This document shows positions 35,913 to 42,928 of a DNA stretch of 64,000 nt, in pieces. The translations under genes and the position numbers were made by a program. Source of the stretch: a virus (lineage: Duplodnaviria > Caudoviricetes). The stretch spans positions 89,809 to 153,808 of the IMG/VR virus record IMGVR_UViG_3300017721_001026. One strand, given 5' to 3'. The notes beneath the pieces are model-generated. The model saw only the letters and a list, made by a program, of their open reading frames with translations. It did not search any database and was not told the origin of the DNA. Positions within the stretch are counted from its first letter, which is position 1; each line of letters starts with the position of its first letter.

Positions 35913-38900
35913 TTATGTATAGTATTTGCTACCTGAGGTGCTTACTTTTTGACTGTTATTTGTATTACTATCAATTATATATGGTTGATTTATAAGAACT
36001 ATCTTAGTACCATCTTCTTCATAATCAGCATGACTTCTTAATTTATCATCACTATTTAGATTGACTGGAGTAATATTACTGGGACTTACAGAATTTGAAC
36101 TTGGTTTATTGAAAAATTGTGATTGTTGGCCAGCAGAAGTTGCTGCATGTTCTCTTGCACCCGCAAATATATCAGTGAATCCACTGGTTCCTTGTAGTGA
36201 TGAGAAGTTTGCTTGCTGACTATCCTCATTTTGAGTAGTTTCTTTTTCTTTCTTTGAGGGAATTATAGGTGGTCCTTTAGTAATTGTTGGAGTTTTAACT
36301 GGTTTTGCATCAACTCCATACTTACTAGAAAGTAATGCACTCACCTTTTCTGCATCAAATTTAGGTTTTTCTCCAGCTGGTGCCAGTGACTCTGGACCAT
36401 CAGCATCACTGATCCCTCTTATAGAATCAGTTTCGGAAGTTTTATTTGCTAATTCTGCTTTGAAGTTTCTAAAATGTTTTTTAACCATATCACGAATAAT
36501 TGGACCACCACTTCCAGGTTTTCCACCTTGCTTGATCATCCATAAATCCCATCTTGCACCAAGACCTCCCCATGCCGTAGGACCATAATTATCAGGTTGT
36601 CCATCTCCATCCGAATCAGCATGACCTGCCAATCCTCTTGGATCATAACCAGAACCTGCCTCAGCATGAGTCCAAATATTTTTATCAATATCACCTTCAC
36701 CCCATCCCCATTTAATTGCAAGTCTTGCCGCTTCAGCAGACATTTGATTTAACTGTTCATGTGTAACTGGTTTGCTGCCAAAATTATTCGGTGTGGCACC
36801 AGCCATTGCAGCAAGTGATAGTCCTACAGAATTACCATTCTTACCTTCAGTGTGCTTTCCTGTCACATCATAATCTTTATTTCTATAAACACTACCATCA
36901 CCTCCAAATATTGTATGGTATCCATAACTTTTACTTGCATCATTATAATTTCCAGCAGTCCAATGTAAGTAAATTTGAGTATCCTTACCTCTTGTTTTTC
37001 CTGGAGTAAAGTTTGGATCACCAAATTTAACTGGAGTAATTGTTCCAGTTCCAGATGGAAGGCTACGTCTACCACTACCTTGACTTACTGTCGGTCCACT
37101 TCCTCCAGGACTTTGAGATTCATCACCTTCAGAATCGTTGGTTCCTCGTTTATCAGTGGCAATAGATTTACTATAAACTGAACCTTCATTATTTGGATCC
37201 GATTCGGAGAAGAATGCTGTTCTTAAAACATTAAACTTTTTAACTAGATTATACTCTAAAGGATTTAATAAAGTAGCCCAACCACCAAGTTTTATCTTAC
37301 CAAGATTTAAGAAGGGAACCCATGATAAATCAATTTGTGGTCCATCTTGTTTTTGGATATTACTAATACCCTTCATCATCCATTCAGAAAATAATTTAGC
37401 ACCATTTACAACTTTTAAAATATCATTTTTCAGTCTCTTTCCAACCGCAGATGCACCTCCACCATTCAATAGTTCATACATCAGATCACCGACATATTCA
37501 CCAGCAAGTGTTCCAATGATTGTTCCTAAGAATGGAATTGGGATAAATGAACCAAGGAATCCACCAAGTGCAGAACCACCTACCTTAAACAATGCTCTAT
37601 CAAGTTTACCATCTTCCATATAGGAAGCAATACCAATCATAAGTGGACCAATAATTGGTATTCTACCTAGAGGTCCAGAACTAACTTTGGCAAATTTACT
37701 TGCAAGTCTTGCTCCTGATCTATTCAAACCAAGTCTTGCACCACGACCCATAATTCTGGTCTGAAGACGACTTCCAGATTTTGCAAGTCCTCTTCTAAAA
37801 ACACCACCCGCTCTTCCAGATGCTGGTCTTCCTCCAGCACCTGTTCCAAGACCAGGACCTGATGGTTTAGGAACAAACTTTTTGTTCCTAATCATCTTAT
37901 CCACATTTGCTTTTGCTCTCCTTGCTGCTTGAGTTGGAGTCTTACCAGATTTTATAGCATCATCATATGCATTCTGATATGCTCTAGCAGCATCATTACC
38001 ATACTTTCTTTCAAATAATTTTGCCTGCCGACCACGATTCATATATTCCGAAGTCTTACTTGCTCCTGATGCTGGTTTTCCACCAGGTGATAGTTTAGTT
38101 TGAGGTTGTACTCCAGGTTTTGCTCCAGGAGTCATACCATTAAGAGGAACTCCAGACATTGCCAAGATCATTGCAATGTTGATAAACTTGTTGAATTTTC
38201 CTAAGAACTTAGTATATTCTTTTTCAGCATCCTCACCACCAACACCTTCAATTTCTCTTCCTATTGCATCTGTAACATCATAGGCACCATCAACTACAGA
38301 TATAATTCCATTTAGAATTTTTCCTCCTAGATTTACAATAAATTCTGTTGCAGCAGCAAGATTTTTTACAATATTAAATACTGTCTCCCTATTCTCAAAT
38401 AAAAATATTAATATTTTACCAGCAATGACACTGAATATAAAGTTTTGGATGGCATCAATAATTCCACCTTTAGGAAGAATTTTTGAAAGTGCTGCTCCAC
38501 CAAGTCCAGCACCAATTTTAGATTTATTTTCTAGTTTTGTCTCTTTAGACTGTCTTTGTTCCTTTTCAAATAATTTTTTCTTAGTAGTTACATCTTTTTT
38601 CTCTTCTTTTATTGACTTACCAAGTAAATTTCTAATGTCAAGAACTTCCTTGTCGATACGTTCAAGTGTTCCTGGACCAGACTTTGGTGATCCAGATACT
38701 TGAGTTTTGTTATTTCTTGCTGGAATAGATGTTGAAGGTATAAGTGCAGTCTTTGGGTTTATTGTAATCGCATTACTTTTTCCTTGTTCTTGCCCTTGAG
38801 TCTGACGTTTAACAATTTGAGTATTTTTACCACCACTAAATGCTTTTTTTGCAGCACGTTTTGCTAGTTGACCACCAACTGCTCTTGAAATTGAACCTCC

Positions 38901-38915
38901 TAGCAATCCAATCAC
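35913..38915 (-). CDS. Tape-measure/hub-like protein with N-acetylmuramoyl-L-alanine amidase domain
   Basis: 1000 aa; IYLHWTAG, YH, HTEGKNGNSVG, IWTHAE amidase motifs; K/E coiled coil and Gly/hydrophobic helices. Confidence 0.75.
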   Translation of the reverse strand: MIGLLGGSISRAVGGQLAKRAAKKAFSGGKNTQIVKRQTQGQEQGKSNAITINPKTALIPSTSIPARNNKTQVSGSPKSGPGTLERIDKEVLDIRNLLGKSIKEEKKDVTTKKKLFEKEQRQSKETKLENKSKIGAGLGGAALSKILPKGGIIDAIQNFIFSVIAGKILIFLFENRETVFNIVKNLAAATEFIVNLGGKILNGIISVVDGAYDVTDAIGREIEGVGGEDAEKEYTKFLGKFNKFINIAMILAMSGVPLNGMTPGAKPGVQPQTKLSPGGKPASGASKTSEYMNRGRQAKLFERKYGNDAARAYQNAYDDAIKSGKTPTQAARRAKANVDKMIRNKKFVPKPSGPGLGTGAGGRPASGRAGGVFRRGLAKSGSRLQTRIMGRGARLGLNRSGARLASKFAKVSSGPLGRIPIIGPLMIGIASYMEDGKLDRALFKVGGSALGGFLGSFIPIPFLGTIIGTLAGEYVGDLMYELLNGGGASAVGKRLKNDILKVVNGAKLFSEWMMKGISNIQKQDGPQIDLSWVPFLNLGKIKLGGWATLLNPLEYNLVKKFNVLRTAFFSESDPNNEGSVYSKSIATDKRGTNDSEGDESQSPGGSGPTVSQGSGRRSLPSGTGTITPVKFGDPNFTPGKTRGKDTQIYLHWTAGNYNDASKSYGYHTIFGGDGSVYRNKDYDVTGKHTEGKNGNSVGLSLAAMAGATPNNFGSKPVTHEQLNQMSAEAARLAIKWGWGEGDIDKNIWTHAEAGSGYDPRGLAGHADSDGDGQPDNYGPTAWGGLGARWDLWMIKQGGKPGSGGPIIRDMVKKHFRNFKAELANKTSETDSIRGISDADGPESLAPAGEKPKFDAEKVSALLSSKYGVDAKPVKTPTITKGPPIIPSKKEKETTQNEDSQQANFSSLQGTSGFTDIFAGAREHAATSAGQQSQFFNKPSSNSVSPSNITPVNLNSDDKLRSHADYEEDGTKIVLINQPYIIDSNTNNSQKVSTSGSKYYT

Positions 38916-41362
38916 TGGAAGTCACCTCCTAATGTATTTGCAATCATGGTCTTTCTTACTTCAGCTGCAAGTTTTGATGGTGATGTTGTTGGGAAATCTG
39001 GATCAGTTGGTACATTCCCAGTTTCAGAATCGTTGGCAGGAAATCCTGCAATTGGAGGCATAGTTATAGCATCAGTAGAATTTTTGGGGACATGCTTCAA
39101 TCTCTCTGTAGGAGAAATTTTTTCTATCGGTAATGGAGTAAGTTGTGAATTTTCTTTTGGTAAGATTTTTGATGATATTTGCCCAGAAGGTTTTGCTAAT
39201 TTTGCTCTTGCACCTGCAAAAATATCAGAGAACGCACTAGTTCCTTTTAATGATGAGAAGTCTATATCATCATTGGGATTATCTATACGAATATTGTTAT
39301 AACTATTCTCAGTAATACCAGTTTGAGTACTAATTACGTTACCTTGAGAAGTTGCCCCAAATGATTTTACTGGATCTGACCATCCAAATCCTTCAAACAT
39401 AGAAATTGTGTTAGGAGGATCTCCAGGTCTTCCTTTTACATAATCACCTGCAACATATCCTTTAGTATTGGGATTTCCATCATTAGTAAAGGTTTCTTTT
39501 TCTTGTGTCCATGCTGGTACTTTATCCAAAGATGGAATCATAGATTTTGCTACAGTTGCTTTAGAATTTCTAAGTGCATCCATAGTTTCACTTACAGTAT
39601 GACGTGCTGCATTACCACCTTTACCTTCATAATAACTTTGTCCCGCACTTACTTGTTGTACATGACCTCTCATATTTTTGGGAACAGGAATTGATGCAAA
39701 TTCCATGGCAAGATCAATTTGTGCTGCCTCAATATCATTACTTTTACCCATCAAATACGAGGAAAGTCTTTCTCTTCCAGGTTTATTCAATAGAAGATTT
39801 GTGCCCATCTTATCCTGGTTTGACCTATTGAACATGTCATCATCTTTCAAACCAGTTCCATTTAATGCATTAGGCATAGTTTGTGGAGTTATTTGATAAC
39901 GACCAGCAGCATATAATTTACCAGAATTCTGATGTCTCCTTACTTCCCCAATAGTCATATCAAATAGATTCTTACCCAGTATTGTAGAAGCATTATTGGT
40001 GCTTCCCACGATTCTATTACCACTACTACCTTGATTCATGGAGTTATAATTACCCTCACCTTTAGAAACAAAATCTAGTAGTGGTTTAACTGCTCCAACA
40101 TATCCACCACCTGATGCATATGTGGTTCCACTTACCATTCTTGGTTTATTTGTACCACCACCAGCAGCATTGATAGATTCCATAAAACCACTACCAAACT
40201 TATCAACAGCACCACGACTCATTACAAACTCACCTGGAGTAAGCATGGCAGGAACAGTGTCAGTTCCACGAGCCATACCACCACCAGAAAATCCTTCTCG
40301 TTCATTCAAAGAAGGTAGTATACCTCTAGTAAATGTTTCCATAATACTACCAGGTTTTGATAGTTCATCTGCTTGCTTCTTTGGAGTAGCATCAGTCAGA
40401 CCTTTACTTTCTAGTTGTTGTTCAGTGCTATCCTTAGCCCTGAATGCTAAAGCACCAGCACCGATGGCAGTGGCAATCGCAGCAGCTGCAAGTGGATTCT
40501 TTGCTGCAAAACCTATTAACGCAGGTATTGCTCTTGTTACTAAGAACGCAGTAAGTCTTGCCATTCCACTTACTACGGTTCTAATAAAACTACCTAGTGG
40601 AGTAGCAAATAATACGAATGCAGCAGTAAGTGCTGGCCACCAATCTTTTAAGAACCTACCAAGAGTATCAAGTTTTTTCTTATTCTTTGGATCTGACATC
40701 CATTCAATAATATTGACAAGAATTTTACCCAGAACTACATTCTTTATCCAATTAAATATTGTATCAAATATACTTAGTTGAGGTAAAGCACCTTTTAATT
40801 TTTTAAGGAAACCTTTTCCTTTCTTATCTTTTTCTAAAGATTCTTCTTTTGCTTTTCTTTTTTTCTTCTGAAGGTTCTTTCTTTCAATGTCTCTAATACT
40901 CTTAGTTACATTAAGTCTTTCCTTAATCAGACCTTTTATTGCAATAATATTTTTTAGAATACTAGAGAGAAGTTTATCACTCTTATCTACTTTTACATTC
41001 TTCTTCTCAATCTTAGATTCTTCTACAGATTCTTCTGTAGGTTTCTGATATGGAACAAGAGCAGAACTTGGAAGTGCCCTTACTTCAGATACTTTTGCTT
41101 TGGATTTAAAAGAACTCTTGGATATTTTTGCCGTTTTTGCCTTGAACTTTGGATCTGCTGCTTTTCTTTTCTTTCTTACTGCTATAATTTCTTTTCTTAA
41201 TGCTTCAGATCTATCATCCCCAGCACCTTTTGTTTGGAACTCAATGGTTGCTGCTGCTTCCATCAAGGCACTAAGATAATCTTCCTCACCAGAGAGGTTA
41301 TCTAGGTCTACACCCATCTCTAAGAGTATTTCTATTGGATCGGTAGTAGTCCTAGATGCCAT
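38912..41362 (-). CDS. Tape-measure/hub-like protein with lysozyme-like domain
   Basis: 816 aa; LLDFVSKGEG.YN...AAGRYQI..T...NQD...LAMEFASIP; GTDTVPAMLTPGEFVM. Confidence 0.75.
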   Translation of the reverse strand: MASRTTTDPIEILLEMGVDLDNLSGEEDYLSALMEAAATIEFQTKGAGDDRSEALRKEIIAVRKKRKAADPKFKAKTAKISKSSFKSKAKVSEVRALPSSALVPYQKPTEESVEESKIEKKNVKVDKSDKLLSSILKNIIAIKGLIKERLNVTKSIRDIERKNLQKKKRKAKEESLEKDKKGKGFLKKLKGALPQLSIFDTIFNWIKNVVLGKILVNIIEWMSDPKNKKKLDTLGRFLKDWWPALTAAFVLFATPLGSFIRTVVSGMARLTAFLVTRAIPALIGFAAKNPLAAAAIATAIGAGALAFRAKDSTEQQLESKGLTDATPKKQADELSKPGSIMETFTRGILPSLNEREGFSGGGMARGTDTVPAMLTPGEFVMSRGAVDKFGSGFMESINAAGGGTNKPRMVSGTTYASGGGYVGAVKPLLDFVSKGEGNYNSMNQGSSGNRIVGSTNNASTILGKNLFDMTIGEVRRHQNSGKLYAAGRYQITPQTMPNALNGTGLKDDDMFNRSNQDKMGTNLLLNKPGRERLSSYLMGKSNDIEAAQIDLAMEFASIPVPKNMRGHVQQVSAGQSYYEGKGGNAARHTVSETMDALRNSKATVAKSMIPSLDKVPAWTQEKETFTNDGNPNTKGYVAGDYVKGRPGDPPNTISMFEGFGWSDPVKSFGATSQGNVISTQTGITENSYNNIRIDNPNDDIDFSSLKGTSAFSDIFAGARAKLAKPSGQISSKILPKENSQLTPLPIEKISPTERLKHVPKNSTDAITMPPIAGFPANDSETGNVPTDPDFPTTSPSKLAAEVRKTMIANTLGGDFQ

Positions 41363-41531
41363 TTGCTGTTTGTTGTTTTAACTTCTCTTCATCAAGATGT
41401 TGTTGAAGTAGCATAACGTAGATATCACGTTCGATCGGAATCATATTCTCGATCTCTGTTAATGAGTATTTATGGTACTGCATCAAGGCAAAATTGAGAC
41501 GGAAATAGTTCTCAAGATCCATATGGATCAT
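41352..41531 (-). CDS. gp51: Small baseplate hub assembly protein (cyanophage gp51-like); absent from the ORF track
   Basis: 59 aa read by eye: MIHMDLENYFRLNFALMQYHKYSLTEIENMIPIERDIYVMLLQQHLDEEKLKQQTANGI. Confidence 0.85.
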   Translation of the reverse strand: MIHMDLENYFRLNFALMQYHKYSLTEIENMIPIERDIYVMLLQQHLDEEKLKQQTANGI

Positions 41532-41533
41532 GC

Positions 41534-42247
41534 CTATGCGAAAAAAGACGCTAGACCCTCAAGTACAACTTCACTTTCAACTTTAGTATTTGGATTTGTA
41601 ATCTTTACTGTATGAGTTAGTTTGGGCATACTAGTAAAGAAATCTTCAATCTTTTTAAATTGTGTTGAATTCATTTGCTCAACAAACTCCATAAGTTCTT
41701 TCTTAGTGCAGTTTGCAGCCTCCCAGACTTCATCTTCAGTATAAACTTTGTCAATACATGTTGTAATTAAATCAAAGGATCTATCTGCTTCACTTTCAGT
41801 ATCAAAGTTTTCTTTAACAAACTGTGCTAGAGACGGATATGCCATCTCAATCATAATATTATCATCCAATTTAATCTGAGTATCATGTCCCTTTTCTTTA
41901 TGGACTTCAATTTCTTCAACATTAATTTGAACAGTGACAGTACTCTGACCATCATCGGGACAAATTAGGTTAACCTCAATATCTTCTCCAACAGACTTTC
42001 CACGAATATTTAAAAATAGATATTCAATATCAAAAGTTGGAAGTTTTTCAACCTTAATACCTTTCGTTTTGATGCAGTTCTTAATGACAGTCTTCACTGC
42101 ATTACTAATCTGCTTTTGACTTTCAGTTTCCAATGCGTATAGGAGAACCTTTTCTTCTTTAACTAGAAATGGTCTATACTCAATCGTTTGTCCTGTTGAA
42201 GGTAGTTCCAACTCAAATGTTGGTGTAGCAATTGTTGGTAAAGGCAT
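41534..42247 (-). CDS. gp26: Baseplate hub assembly protein gp26-like
   Basis: MPLP...YRPFLVKEEKVLL...FDIEYLFLNIRGKSVGE...LEGLASFF. Confidence 0.9.
   Translation of the reverse strand: MPLPTIATPTFELELPSTGQTIEYRPFLVKEEKVLLYALETESQKQISNAVKTVIKNCIKTKGIKVEKLPTFDIEYLFLNIRGKSVGEDIEVNLICPDDGQSTVTVQINVEEIEVHKEKGHDTQIKLDDNIMIEMAYPSLAQFVKENFDTESEADRSFDLITTCIDKVYTEDEVWEAANCTKKELMEFVEQMNSTQFKKIEDFFTSMPKLTHTVKITNPNTKVESEVVLEGLASFFA
41540..41546 (-). promoter_or_regulatory. Candidate -1 ribosomal slippery heptamer T TTT TTC
   Basis: In correct phase at the end of gp26; the -1 frame is open into gp51; hairpin 7 nt downstream. Confidence 0.65.
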
Positions 42248-42273
42248 AATAATCCAATAAAAAATTCAGGTTG

Positions 42274-42280
42274 TATTTAT
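42274..42280 (-). promoter_or_regulatory. Late promoter motif (ATAAATA)
   Basis: Upstream of gp26. Confidence 0.55.
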
Positions 42281-42298
42281 TTATTCTAGTTCTACGAA

Positions 42299-42928
42299 TC
42301 ATGTAGTAGAAGAATAATATTTTTGATAATCCATTGTCACAGTCATCGTTAGTAAATCAGTTGCTCCCTGAGAAATTGGCATACTATTAATAGATGATGG
42401 AAATGCATTTATAAATTTATAGTTTAATGTTTTCTTCTTTGATGGGGTTGAAGAAAAAGTATCTTTTTCATACTTAATAATGTTTAAATTTGACATATAT
42501 TCATCTGTAAAGGGAACTCTATAACTTTGCCTTGCTTCCTCTCTATTATATTCTTCACTACTCTCTCCACCAATATATCCCATCCATCCCTCAAACATTC
42601 TTAAGAGAGTATACTCCCTATCAATAGCAAAAGTAAAATCAATTTTACCGTCAAATTGTCTACGGTATGCGTGCCTCTCAGTAATTCCAGAATAATCATT
42701 TGTAATTTCATGAGTTGCAAGACTAGATCCTGGCAATGTGGTATCTATACAAGCAATTTCTATTAAATTTTGAACTTGTGATGAAGTAACCCCGTATTTA
42801 TTTCTTACATGATCTCCTATTCTGCTGGGTAGTGTAAAAAATACTTGATAAAAATTAGTGGATGCATAATTACCCATCCTGGCTTTAACATCAGCCATAC
42901 TAAATTTCTTTGGTCCAGTGTCTGCCAT
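42299..42928 (-). CDS. Tail-tube-fold protein (gp54/gp19-like)
   Basis: C..TTLPG.S, IDFTF.ID...FEGWM, YKFINAFP.SI, MTVTMDY. Confidence 0.7.
   Translation of the reverse strand: MADTGPKKFSMADVKARMGNYASTNFYQVFFTLPSRIGDHVRNKYGVTSSQVQNLIEIACIDTTLPGSSLATHEITNDYSGITERHAYRRQFDGKIDFTFAIDREYTLLRMFEGWMGYIGGESSEEYNREEARQSYRVPFTDEYMSNLNIIKYEKDTFSSTPSKKKTLNYKFINAFPSSINSMPISQGATDLLTMTVTMDYQKYYSSTT

Follow-up and report, generated by a model that had tools for sequence, protein, structure and literature searches.

The stretch of DNA analyzed here, called the window, comprises 64,000 nucleotides (nt) of the IMG/VR virus record IMGVR_UViG_3300017721_001026 and is part of a 153.8-kb record with an estimated completeness of 67%. 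Five consecutive open reading frames (ORFs) lie on its minus strand, coding for a tail-tube-family protein, a gp26-like protein, a product of 59 codons, and proteins of 816 and 1000 amino acids (aa). The subject of this work is the junction between the gp26-like ORF and the 59-codon ORF, which are related to genes 26 and 51 of phage T4. This junction is a candidate site of programmed -1 frameshifting, comparable to the one that joins the G and T parts of the tail assembly chaperone (TAC) in phage lambda. The features of the junction are the following, where SD stands for Shine-Dalgarno.

41534..42247, minus strand: gp26-like ORF (candidate G part), 237 aa, the zero-frame product; PF12322 T4_baseplate, E 2.8e-73; phrog_150, E 3.7e-79
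41540..41546, minus strand: slippery heptamer T_TTT_TTC in the X_XXY_YYZ phase of gp26; identified in the sequence and conserved in relatives
41352..41540, minus strand: -1 frame extension (candidate T part), 62 codons after the slip, stop at 41354-41352; phrog_634 and phrog_150; aligns with the C-terminal ~50 residues of T4 gp51
41352..41531, minus strand: short 'gp51' ORF, 59 codons; phrog_634 'baseplate hub assembly catalyst', E 1.3e-25
41513..41532, minus strand: downstream hairpin, core stem GATCC/GGATC, loop AUAU, 7 nt past the heptamer; covariation and family-wide stability
41556..41560, minus strand: SD-like GAGGG, candidate dnaX-type upstream stimulator; codon bias

The gp26-like product was matched by PF12322 at 246.7 bits (cut-off 24.5), with positions 2-219 of the 219 profile positions covered. 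This gene was the only PF12322 match in the 153.8-kb record, indicating that the record contains no separate full-length gp51. In addition to phrog_634, the short ORF matches the C-terminal positions 241-280 of phrog_150.

The gp26-like gene ends with GCG TCT TTT TTC GCA TAG, in which the heptamer lies 3 nt before the stop codon TAG (41536-41534). The original prediction had reported this ending and the in-phase heptamer at 41546-41540, and all of its letters and coordinates were correct. The -1 frame reads CGC ATA GGC ATG ATC CAT ATG GAT CTT and remains open to the stop at 41354-41352, with in-frame ATG codons at 41531 and 41522. The predicted fusion contains 236 residues of gp26 and 62 residues of the extension, and the resulting 298 aa, with the junction ...LEGLASFF/RIGMIHMDLENY, agree with the length of about 298 aa that had been proposed. 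The hairpin CA-t-GATCC-ATAT-GGATC-t-TG, described as starting 7 nt past the heptamer, is likewise present, at 41532-41513. The remark that the small ORF has no clear ribosome-binding site carries little weight, since the start of gp26 itself also lacks an SD sequence.

The conservation of the junction was analyzed in two sets of IMG/VR loci. The close set contained 80 loci fetched with the window gp26 (64-79% identity), and the distant set contained 79 loci fetched with the gp26 of phiN3 (30-40% identity to phiN3), of which 75 were evaluable for frame. The two scans together gave 140 distinct loci (30-79% identity), which are phylogenetically related but span several families, so that counts among them are not independent events. 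A scan of IMG/VR with a KVP40-type gp26 as the query gave no matches. A relative of gp26 is present in 688 phage records, most of which are from cyanophages and others from phages of Vibrio, Aeromonas, Stenotrophomonas, and Sinorhizobium. Of the isolates, Synechococcus phage S-SCSM1 (Kyanoviridae) is the nearest, with 76.5% gp26 identity.

The original prediction had proposed two checks among relatives, the constancy of the -1 phase and the freedom of the Phe-Phe codons to vary. The gp51-like domain lies in the -1 frame in 81/82 close loci and in 75/75 evaluable distant loci (156/157 together). In 129 of the 140 loci, T_TTT_TTC is the final in-phase heptamer ahead of the stop, and in the other 11 it is T_TTT_TTT; no other type occurs. 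The Phe-Phe pair is TTT TTC or TTT TTT throughout, always preceded by T. The distance from the heptamer to the stop is 0-24 nt, and is exactly 3 nt in 116 of these loci.

The codons around the heptamer provide further information. The three wobble positions of the heptamer are invariant (zero entropy) in 79/79 distinct close junctions, while the seven preceding variable codons have wobble entropies of 1.3-1.9 bits. The residue before Phe-Phe is variable (S, N, D, A, T, G, or H), but its codon is NNT in all 140 loci (AGT 51, TCT 45, AAT 17, GAT 11, GCT 9, ACT 4, GGT 2, and CAT 1). Elsewhere in the same genes, T-ending codons account for 56% of Ser, 40% of Thr, and 31% of Ala codons, and 70% of Phe codons are TTT. 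A second conserved Phe-Phe pair, in the motif IEDFF (window 41620-41640, minus strand), is encoded by TTC TTT in 84 loci, TTT TTT in 42, TTC TTC in 9, and TTT TTC in 5. The invariant wobble bases, the NNT rule, and the different codons of the second Phe-Phe indicate that the T-run is under selection at the nucleotide level, and not at the protein level alone. The predominance of TTC TTT in the second pair breaks the T-run there, as if slippery runs were avoided away from the programmed site.

Several relatives depart from this pattern. In Stenotrophomonas phage IME-SM1 (NC_054952; L086:3190-3320), the junction reads GAT TTT TCG with five T, while its relative Ps15 (L170:2190-2260) has the canonical GAT TTT TTC GGC TGA. 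Because of the missing T, the 'gp26' of this record has 280 aa, of which 30 form a non-homologous tail, and the T domain is in the +1 frame. The probable cause is an error in the homopolymer or an indel of recent origin. In Vibrio phage K445 (L087) and Klebsiella phage May (Ackermannviridae), the domain is in the -1 frame with no canonical heptamer, and these phages may use another slip site or mechanism.

The products of T4 genes 26 and 51 belong to the same Pfam and PHROG families as the window proteins, and correspond to the short and the long form, respectively. In T4 gp51 (249 aa), PF12322 covers residues 1-201 (E 3.9e-52) and phrog_150 covers residues 3-248. T4 gp26 (208 aa) matches the phrog_150 profile positions 14-235 and no further, and ends three residues past the same G-L-x-x-F-F motif. 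When aligned with MAFFT, the fusions from the window, P-SSM4, S-CRM01, phiN3, Vibrio K575, and Aeromonas CC2 were colinear with T4 gp51 across the junction and the C-terminal domain. The slippery run is absent from both T4 genes: the Phe-Phe of gene 26 is TTC TTT, and the junction of gene 51 is GTG TTT AAG. The two T4 genes are divergently transcribed. T4 gp51 is thus a natural in-frame version of the proposed fusion, and T4 makes the short and long forms from two separate paralogous genes, whereas the window, with one gene and recoding, needs a -1 shift to make the long form. T4 gp26 and gp51 were sisters in the tree (88/82), but both are on long branches, and the tree is unreliable for dating the T4 duplication. 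The two proteins have been described as T4 hub assembly chaperones whose mechanism is not known, and gp51 is needed for assembly but not found in the virion (Leiman et al., 2010; PMC3004832, Table 2). As a side observation, T4 gp26 (L090:7803-8429) also has a weak match over residues 32-141 to phrog_1140 (gp28, 'baseplate hub distal subunit'; E 9e-4), and gp28 may be a third distant paralogue of the family.

The AlphaFold2 model of the window gp26, built with 29 homologues, had a predicted local distance difference test (pLDDT) score of 88 and a predicted template modelling (pTM) score of 0.80. Foldseek found nothing below E 0.001 in the PDB for this model; 2ob9 was returned with a probability of 0.75 at E 1.2. 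The top three matches of VIA-align among 48,161 chains were 3fgx (Z 8.0, root mean square deviation (rmsd) 4.0, 86 aligned), the HK97 TAC 2ob9 (Z 7.6, rmsd 4.0, 85 aligned), and YqbN 3klu (Z 7.3, rmsd 4.3, 86 aligned), although Z values of 7-8 are common best scores in VIA-align. All three lie on gp26 residues 1-92, and the fourth match had a Z of only 4.8. These are exactly the three entries that have been named phage tail assembly chaperones (PMC9603447). A T4-type gp51, a natural protein from a fetched locus, was modelled with a pLDDT of 89, and its C-terminal 50 residues were helical (pLDDT 64-72). The C-terminal (T) domain gave non-specific helical matches only in the fold search (Z <=4.4), with no informative structural relative. 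The models are therefore supportive of a TAC fold in the N-terminal domain of gp26, but do not establish it.

Two candidate stimulators flank the heptamer. The hairpin columns were 78% paired in 79 close sequences, and contained 59 double-sided changes compared with 22 +/- 4 in shuffles (reached in 0/500). When the pairing was slid along the alignment as a control, the fit was best at 0 and worse at all other positions. The pair 21-32, for example, is GC in 26, AU in 24, and GU in 17 sequences. Among the 140 loci, the 40-nt window starting 5 nt past the heptamer had the lowest mean minimum free energy of 41 windows (-7.8 vs -2.2 to -7.0 kcal/mol), and its mean shuffle z was -1.54; the control windows, one of which had equal G+C, gave values of -0.5 to +0.1. 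On the 5' side, GAGG (41560-41557) is separated from the heptamer by a spacer of 10 nt. In the L-E-G-L motif, Glu is encoded by GAG in 98 and by GAA in 22 loci, while elsewhere in the same genes GAG accounts for 31% and GAA for 69%. An SD-like tetramer is present 12-15 nt 5' of the heptamer in 130/140 loci. This codon bias suggests that the upstream element may act as a stimulator.

Taken together, the sequences argue that the gp26-like gene and the gp51-like ORF are very probably joined by a programmed -1 ribosomal frameshift of the lambda G/GT type. The proposal that gp26 and gp51 are the G and T parts of one chaperone gains support from the constant phase, the invariant heptamer, the T ORFs without start codons, the fused T4 gp51, and the N-terminal fold match. 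Most ribosomes would read the gp26-like gene to TAG and produce the 237-aa protein. A minority would slip back by one base with two tRNA-Phe on U_UUU_UUC, continue with CGC AUA GGC AUG, and add 62 residues to give the 298-aa fusion. The slip would probably be stimulated by two elements, the SD-like GAGG (10 nt upstream) and the hairpin (7 nt downstream). Both forms would have the chaperone body in common, whose N-terminal ~90 residues resemble the TAC fold in the model, and the C-terminal domain, which is helical, would be present in the long form only. If the analogy with lambda gpG/gpGT and T4 gp26/gp51 applies, both forms may have a transient role in assembling the complex of hub and tape measure from which the tail tube starts. 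The ratio of short to long form would be set by the slip frequency, and neither form would stay in the virion.

In addition to the relatedness of the loci and the ordinary height of the VIA-align scores mentioned above, several observations weigh against this interpretation. An ATG is located 5 nt after the stop in the window and in 47/80 close relatives, and a free T peptide may also be made from it. In S-SCSM1 (MK867354.2; L001:4715-4745), the gp26 stop is immediately followed by an insert of 11 nt (aatcctaatag), so that gp51, which has its own ATG, is in the +1 frame and the -1 frame closes after 4 codons, while TTTTTTC is retained; either gp51 is decoupled in this phage or the record contains a local error. 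Taken by itself, the hairpin of the window has an unremarkable stability (-9.7 kcal/mol, z -0.95), and alifold gives a weak consensus energy (-1.57 kcal/mol). The T4-type gp51 model resembled the TAC structures weakly (3fgx, Z 3.3).

The fusion could be real but arise from slippage of the RNA polymerase on the T6 run, with an extra U in some of the transcripts. The conservation of a homopolymer run, which reaches T7 in 11 loci, fits such a process, and the one-T difference between IME-SM1 and Ps15 shows that the run is prone to indels at some level. However, T6 is short compared with the known bacterial slippage sites, which usually have at least nine (partly after Atkins et al., 2016; PMC5009743), and in 129/140 loci the run is capped by C at the Z position, with no lengthening. 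The hairpin 7 nt 3' and the GAGG 10 nt 5' of the heptamer are both stimulators of the ribosome type at canonical spacings. Transcriptional slippage is therefore considered unlikely.

Alternatively, gp26 and gp51 could be independent genes, with a short gp51 initiated at ATG 41531 or 41522, perhaps by termination-reinitiation, and the T-run could simply reflect conserved Phe-Phe codons. The post-stop ATG and the +1 frame ORF of S-SCSM1 agree with this explanation, and so does public annotation: 12/12 inspected records annotate separate genes or nothing, and none (0/12) contains a join. However, the position of the window ATG 41531 is occupied by a Leu codon (CTA, CTG, CTC, TTA, or TTG) in 33/80 close relatives. 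Two of them lack any ATG in their first eight codons, and one of these two (L023) also lacks GTG and TTG there. The first 15 codons after the slip, a distance well inside the conserved domain of ~60 residues, contain no ATG in 51/140 loci. Independent genes also leave the constant -1 phase unexplained, as well as the invariant wobble bases and the NNT rule before a variable residue, and T4 gp51 has the same domain fused to a gp26-like body. This explanation is thus likewise considered unlikely. A sequencing indel that split one gene, or a functionless overlap or pseudogene, is effectively refuted. The IME-SM1 record suggests that homopolymer errors happen, but 140 distinct loci, drawn from independent metagenomes and isolates, share the same arrangement and have their stop 0-24 nt past the heptamer.

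The annotation of the T ORF in public records reflects its lack of a regular start. In Aeromonas phage CC2, which has the canonical T_TTT_TTC, the ORF has no start codon and lies unannotated in the gap after gp26, in the -1 frame (L083:4700-4872). It is also unannotated in Klebsiella phage May, where it is in the -1 frame (L089:3300-3480) with no ATG near its head by eye. In Sf-CH5 and S-RIM8, it is annotated from a late internal ATG. A previous report (Sullivan et al., 2010; PMC3037559) made two observations that it left without explanation: the first ~200 residues are absent from gp51 of cyanophages and marine vibriophages, and for Aeh1 gp51 was recorded as 'missing'. Both would be expected if the long form is made by a frameshift.

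The genes on both sides of the junction are also of interest, and the two neighbouring ORFs are the following.

42299..42928, minus strand: tail-tube-family ORF, 209 aa; PF23849 Phage_TTP_2, E 2.2e-15; phrog_45, E 1.6e-32
38912..41362, minus strand: 816-aa ORF, candidate tape measure; Lys-rich helical and hydrophobic N-terminal half, lysozyme-like domain

The counterpart of the upstream tube-family ORF is named gp54-like or 'tail tube' in relatives, and the ORF at the same place in Aeromonas phage CC2 is annotated as gp54 baseplate-tail tube initiator. A sequence AATAAATAAATA at 42273-42285 (minus strand), ~30 nt 5' of the gp26 start, resembles by eye the T4 late-promoter box TATAAATA.

Downstream, the original prediction had described the next gene as tape-measure-like, and the sequence lends this a weak backing. 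The 816-aa protein weakly matches tape-measure PHROGs at their C-terminal ends (E 3e-5 to 6e-4), as well as the endolysin phrog_1200, and its BLASTP match to T4 gp29 was not significant (E 0.015). Its position, composition, and weak profile matches point only faintly to a tape measure, which is a further point against the comparison with lambda. Both the 816-aa and the 1000-aa ORFs (35913-41362, minus strand) contain a peptidoglycan-hydrolase-like domain, matching the endolysin phrog_1200 and Amidase_2, respectively. Their S-SCSM1 counterparts are annotated as virion proteins, under the names 'lysozyme' and 'D-alanyl-D-alanine carboxypeptidase'. The structural table of the very long-tailed phage S-CREM2 contains two virion 'endolysins', ORFs 208 and 209 (PMC10665884), whose sizes are ~1565 and ~1456 aa as calculated from their coordinates. 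If these are the same genes, taking them as positional counterparts, their sizes hint at a tape-measure role for the window ORFs.

The arrangement in the window is similar to that of lambda gpG/gpGT in several respects. Two overlapping ORFs follow a tube-family gene and precede a large gene that is a candidate tape measure; the first stop has an in-phase X_XXY_YYZ a few codons ahead of it; and the second ORF is in the -1 frame, often without a start codon. The short and long products would have a common N-terminal body, whose model has its best, modestly scoring matches in the TAC structures of HK97, YqbN, and Rbstp2171. There are also differences. PF12322 is not annotated as a TAC, and the gp26-like protein has 237 aa compared with ~140 aa in gpG. 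The heptamer is U_UUU_UUC here and G_GGA_AAG in lambda, and the T4 function has been assigned to hub assembly and not to tube polymerization. No sequence similarity of the window proteins to gpG or gpT was found.

The slip site also resembles that of dnaX in E. coli, where A_AAA_AAG has an SD sequence ~10 nt upstream and a hairpin downstream. In both cases, a homopolymer-type heptamer lies between an SD-like element ~10 nt 5' and a stem-loop a few nt 3' (for dnaX, see also PMC5009743). However, the dnaX shift is ~50% efficient and truncates the product, whereas the shift in the window would extend it, and the SD-like element of the window is suggested by codon bias.

The -1 frameshift is conserved in the TAC genes of long-tailed phages (Levin, 1993; Xu, Hendrix and Duda, 2004, as cited in passages of Atkins et al., 2016; PMC5009743), and the 2016 review names T4 as the exception to it (PMC5009743). 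The slip was not reported in the literature found for gp26 or gp51 together with frameshift, tail assembly chaperone, or baseplate hub; this search covered few subscription journals and is not proof of absence. The U_UUU_UUC arrangement is shared by Kyanoviridae, KVP40-like and Aeromonas Straboviridae, rhizobiophages, Menderavirus, and many lineages of uncultured viruses from marine and freshwater sources. We consider it likely that gp26/gp51 is the missing TAC of the whole T4 superfamily, that the -1 frameshift on U_UUU_UUC is ancestral and still prevalent, and that the T-even lineage exchanged recoding for a duplication into genes 26 and 51.

T4 is the reference phage for contractile tails, but what gp26 and gp51 do during assembly of the hub is still unclear. 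If the interpretation is correct, the words 'except T4' would drop from the G/GT frameshift rule for long-tailed phages, and the long-unexplained 'catalytic' role of T4 gp51 would have a mechanistic reading. Hundreds of T4-like genomes would be mis-annotated, with gp51 given as an independent gene of 43-60 aa or absent, and the 2010 puzzle of the marine gp51 without its first ~200 residues would be solved. A cheap annotation rule follows the pattern seen here, namely the end of a PF12322 gene with TTTTTTC and a stop 0-24 nt later. T4 gp26 and gp51 would then represent a natural experiment, in which a ratio fixed by recoding has been replaced by two genes.

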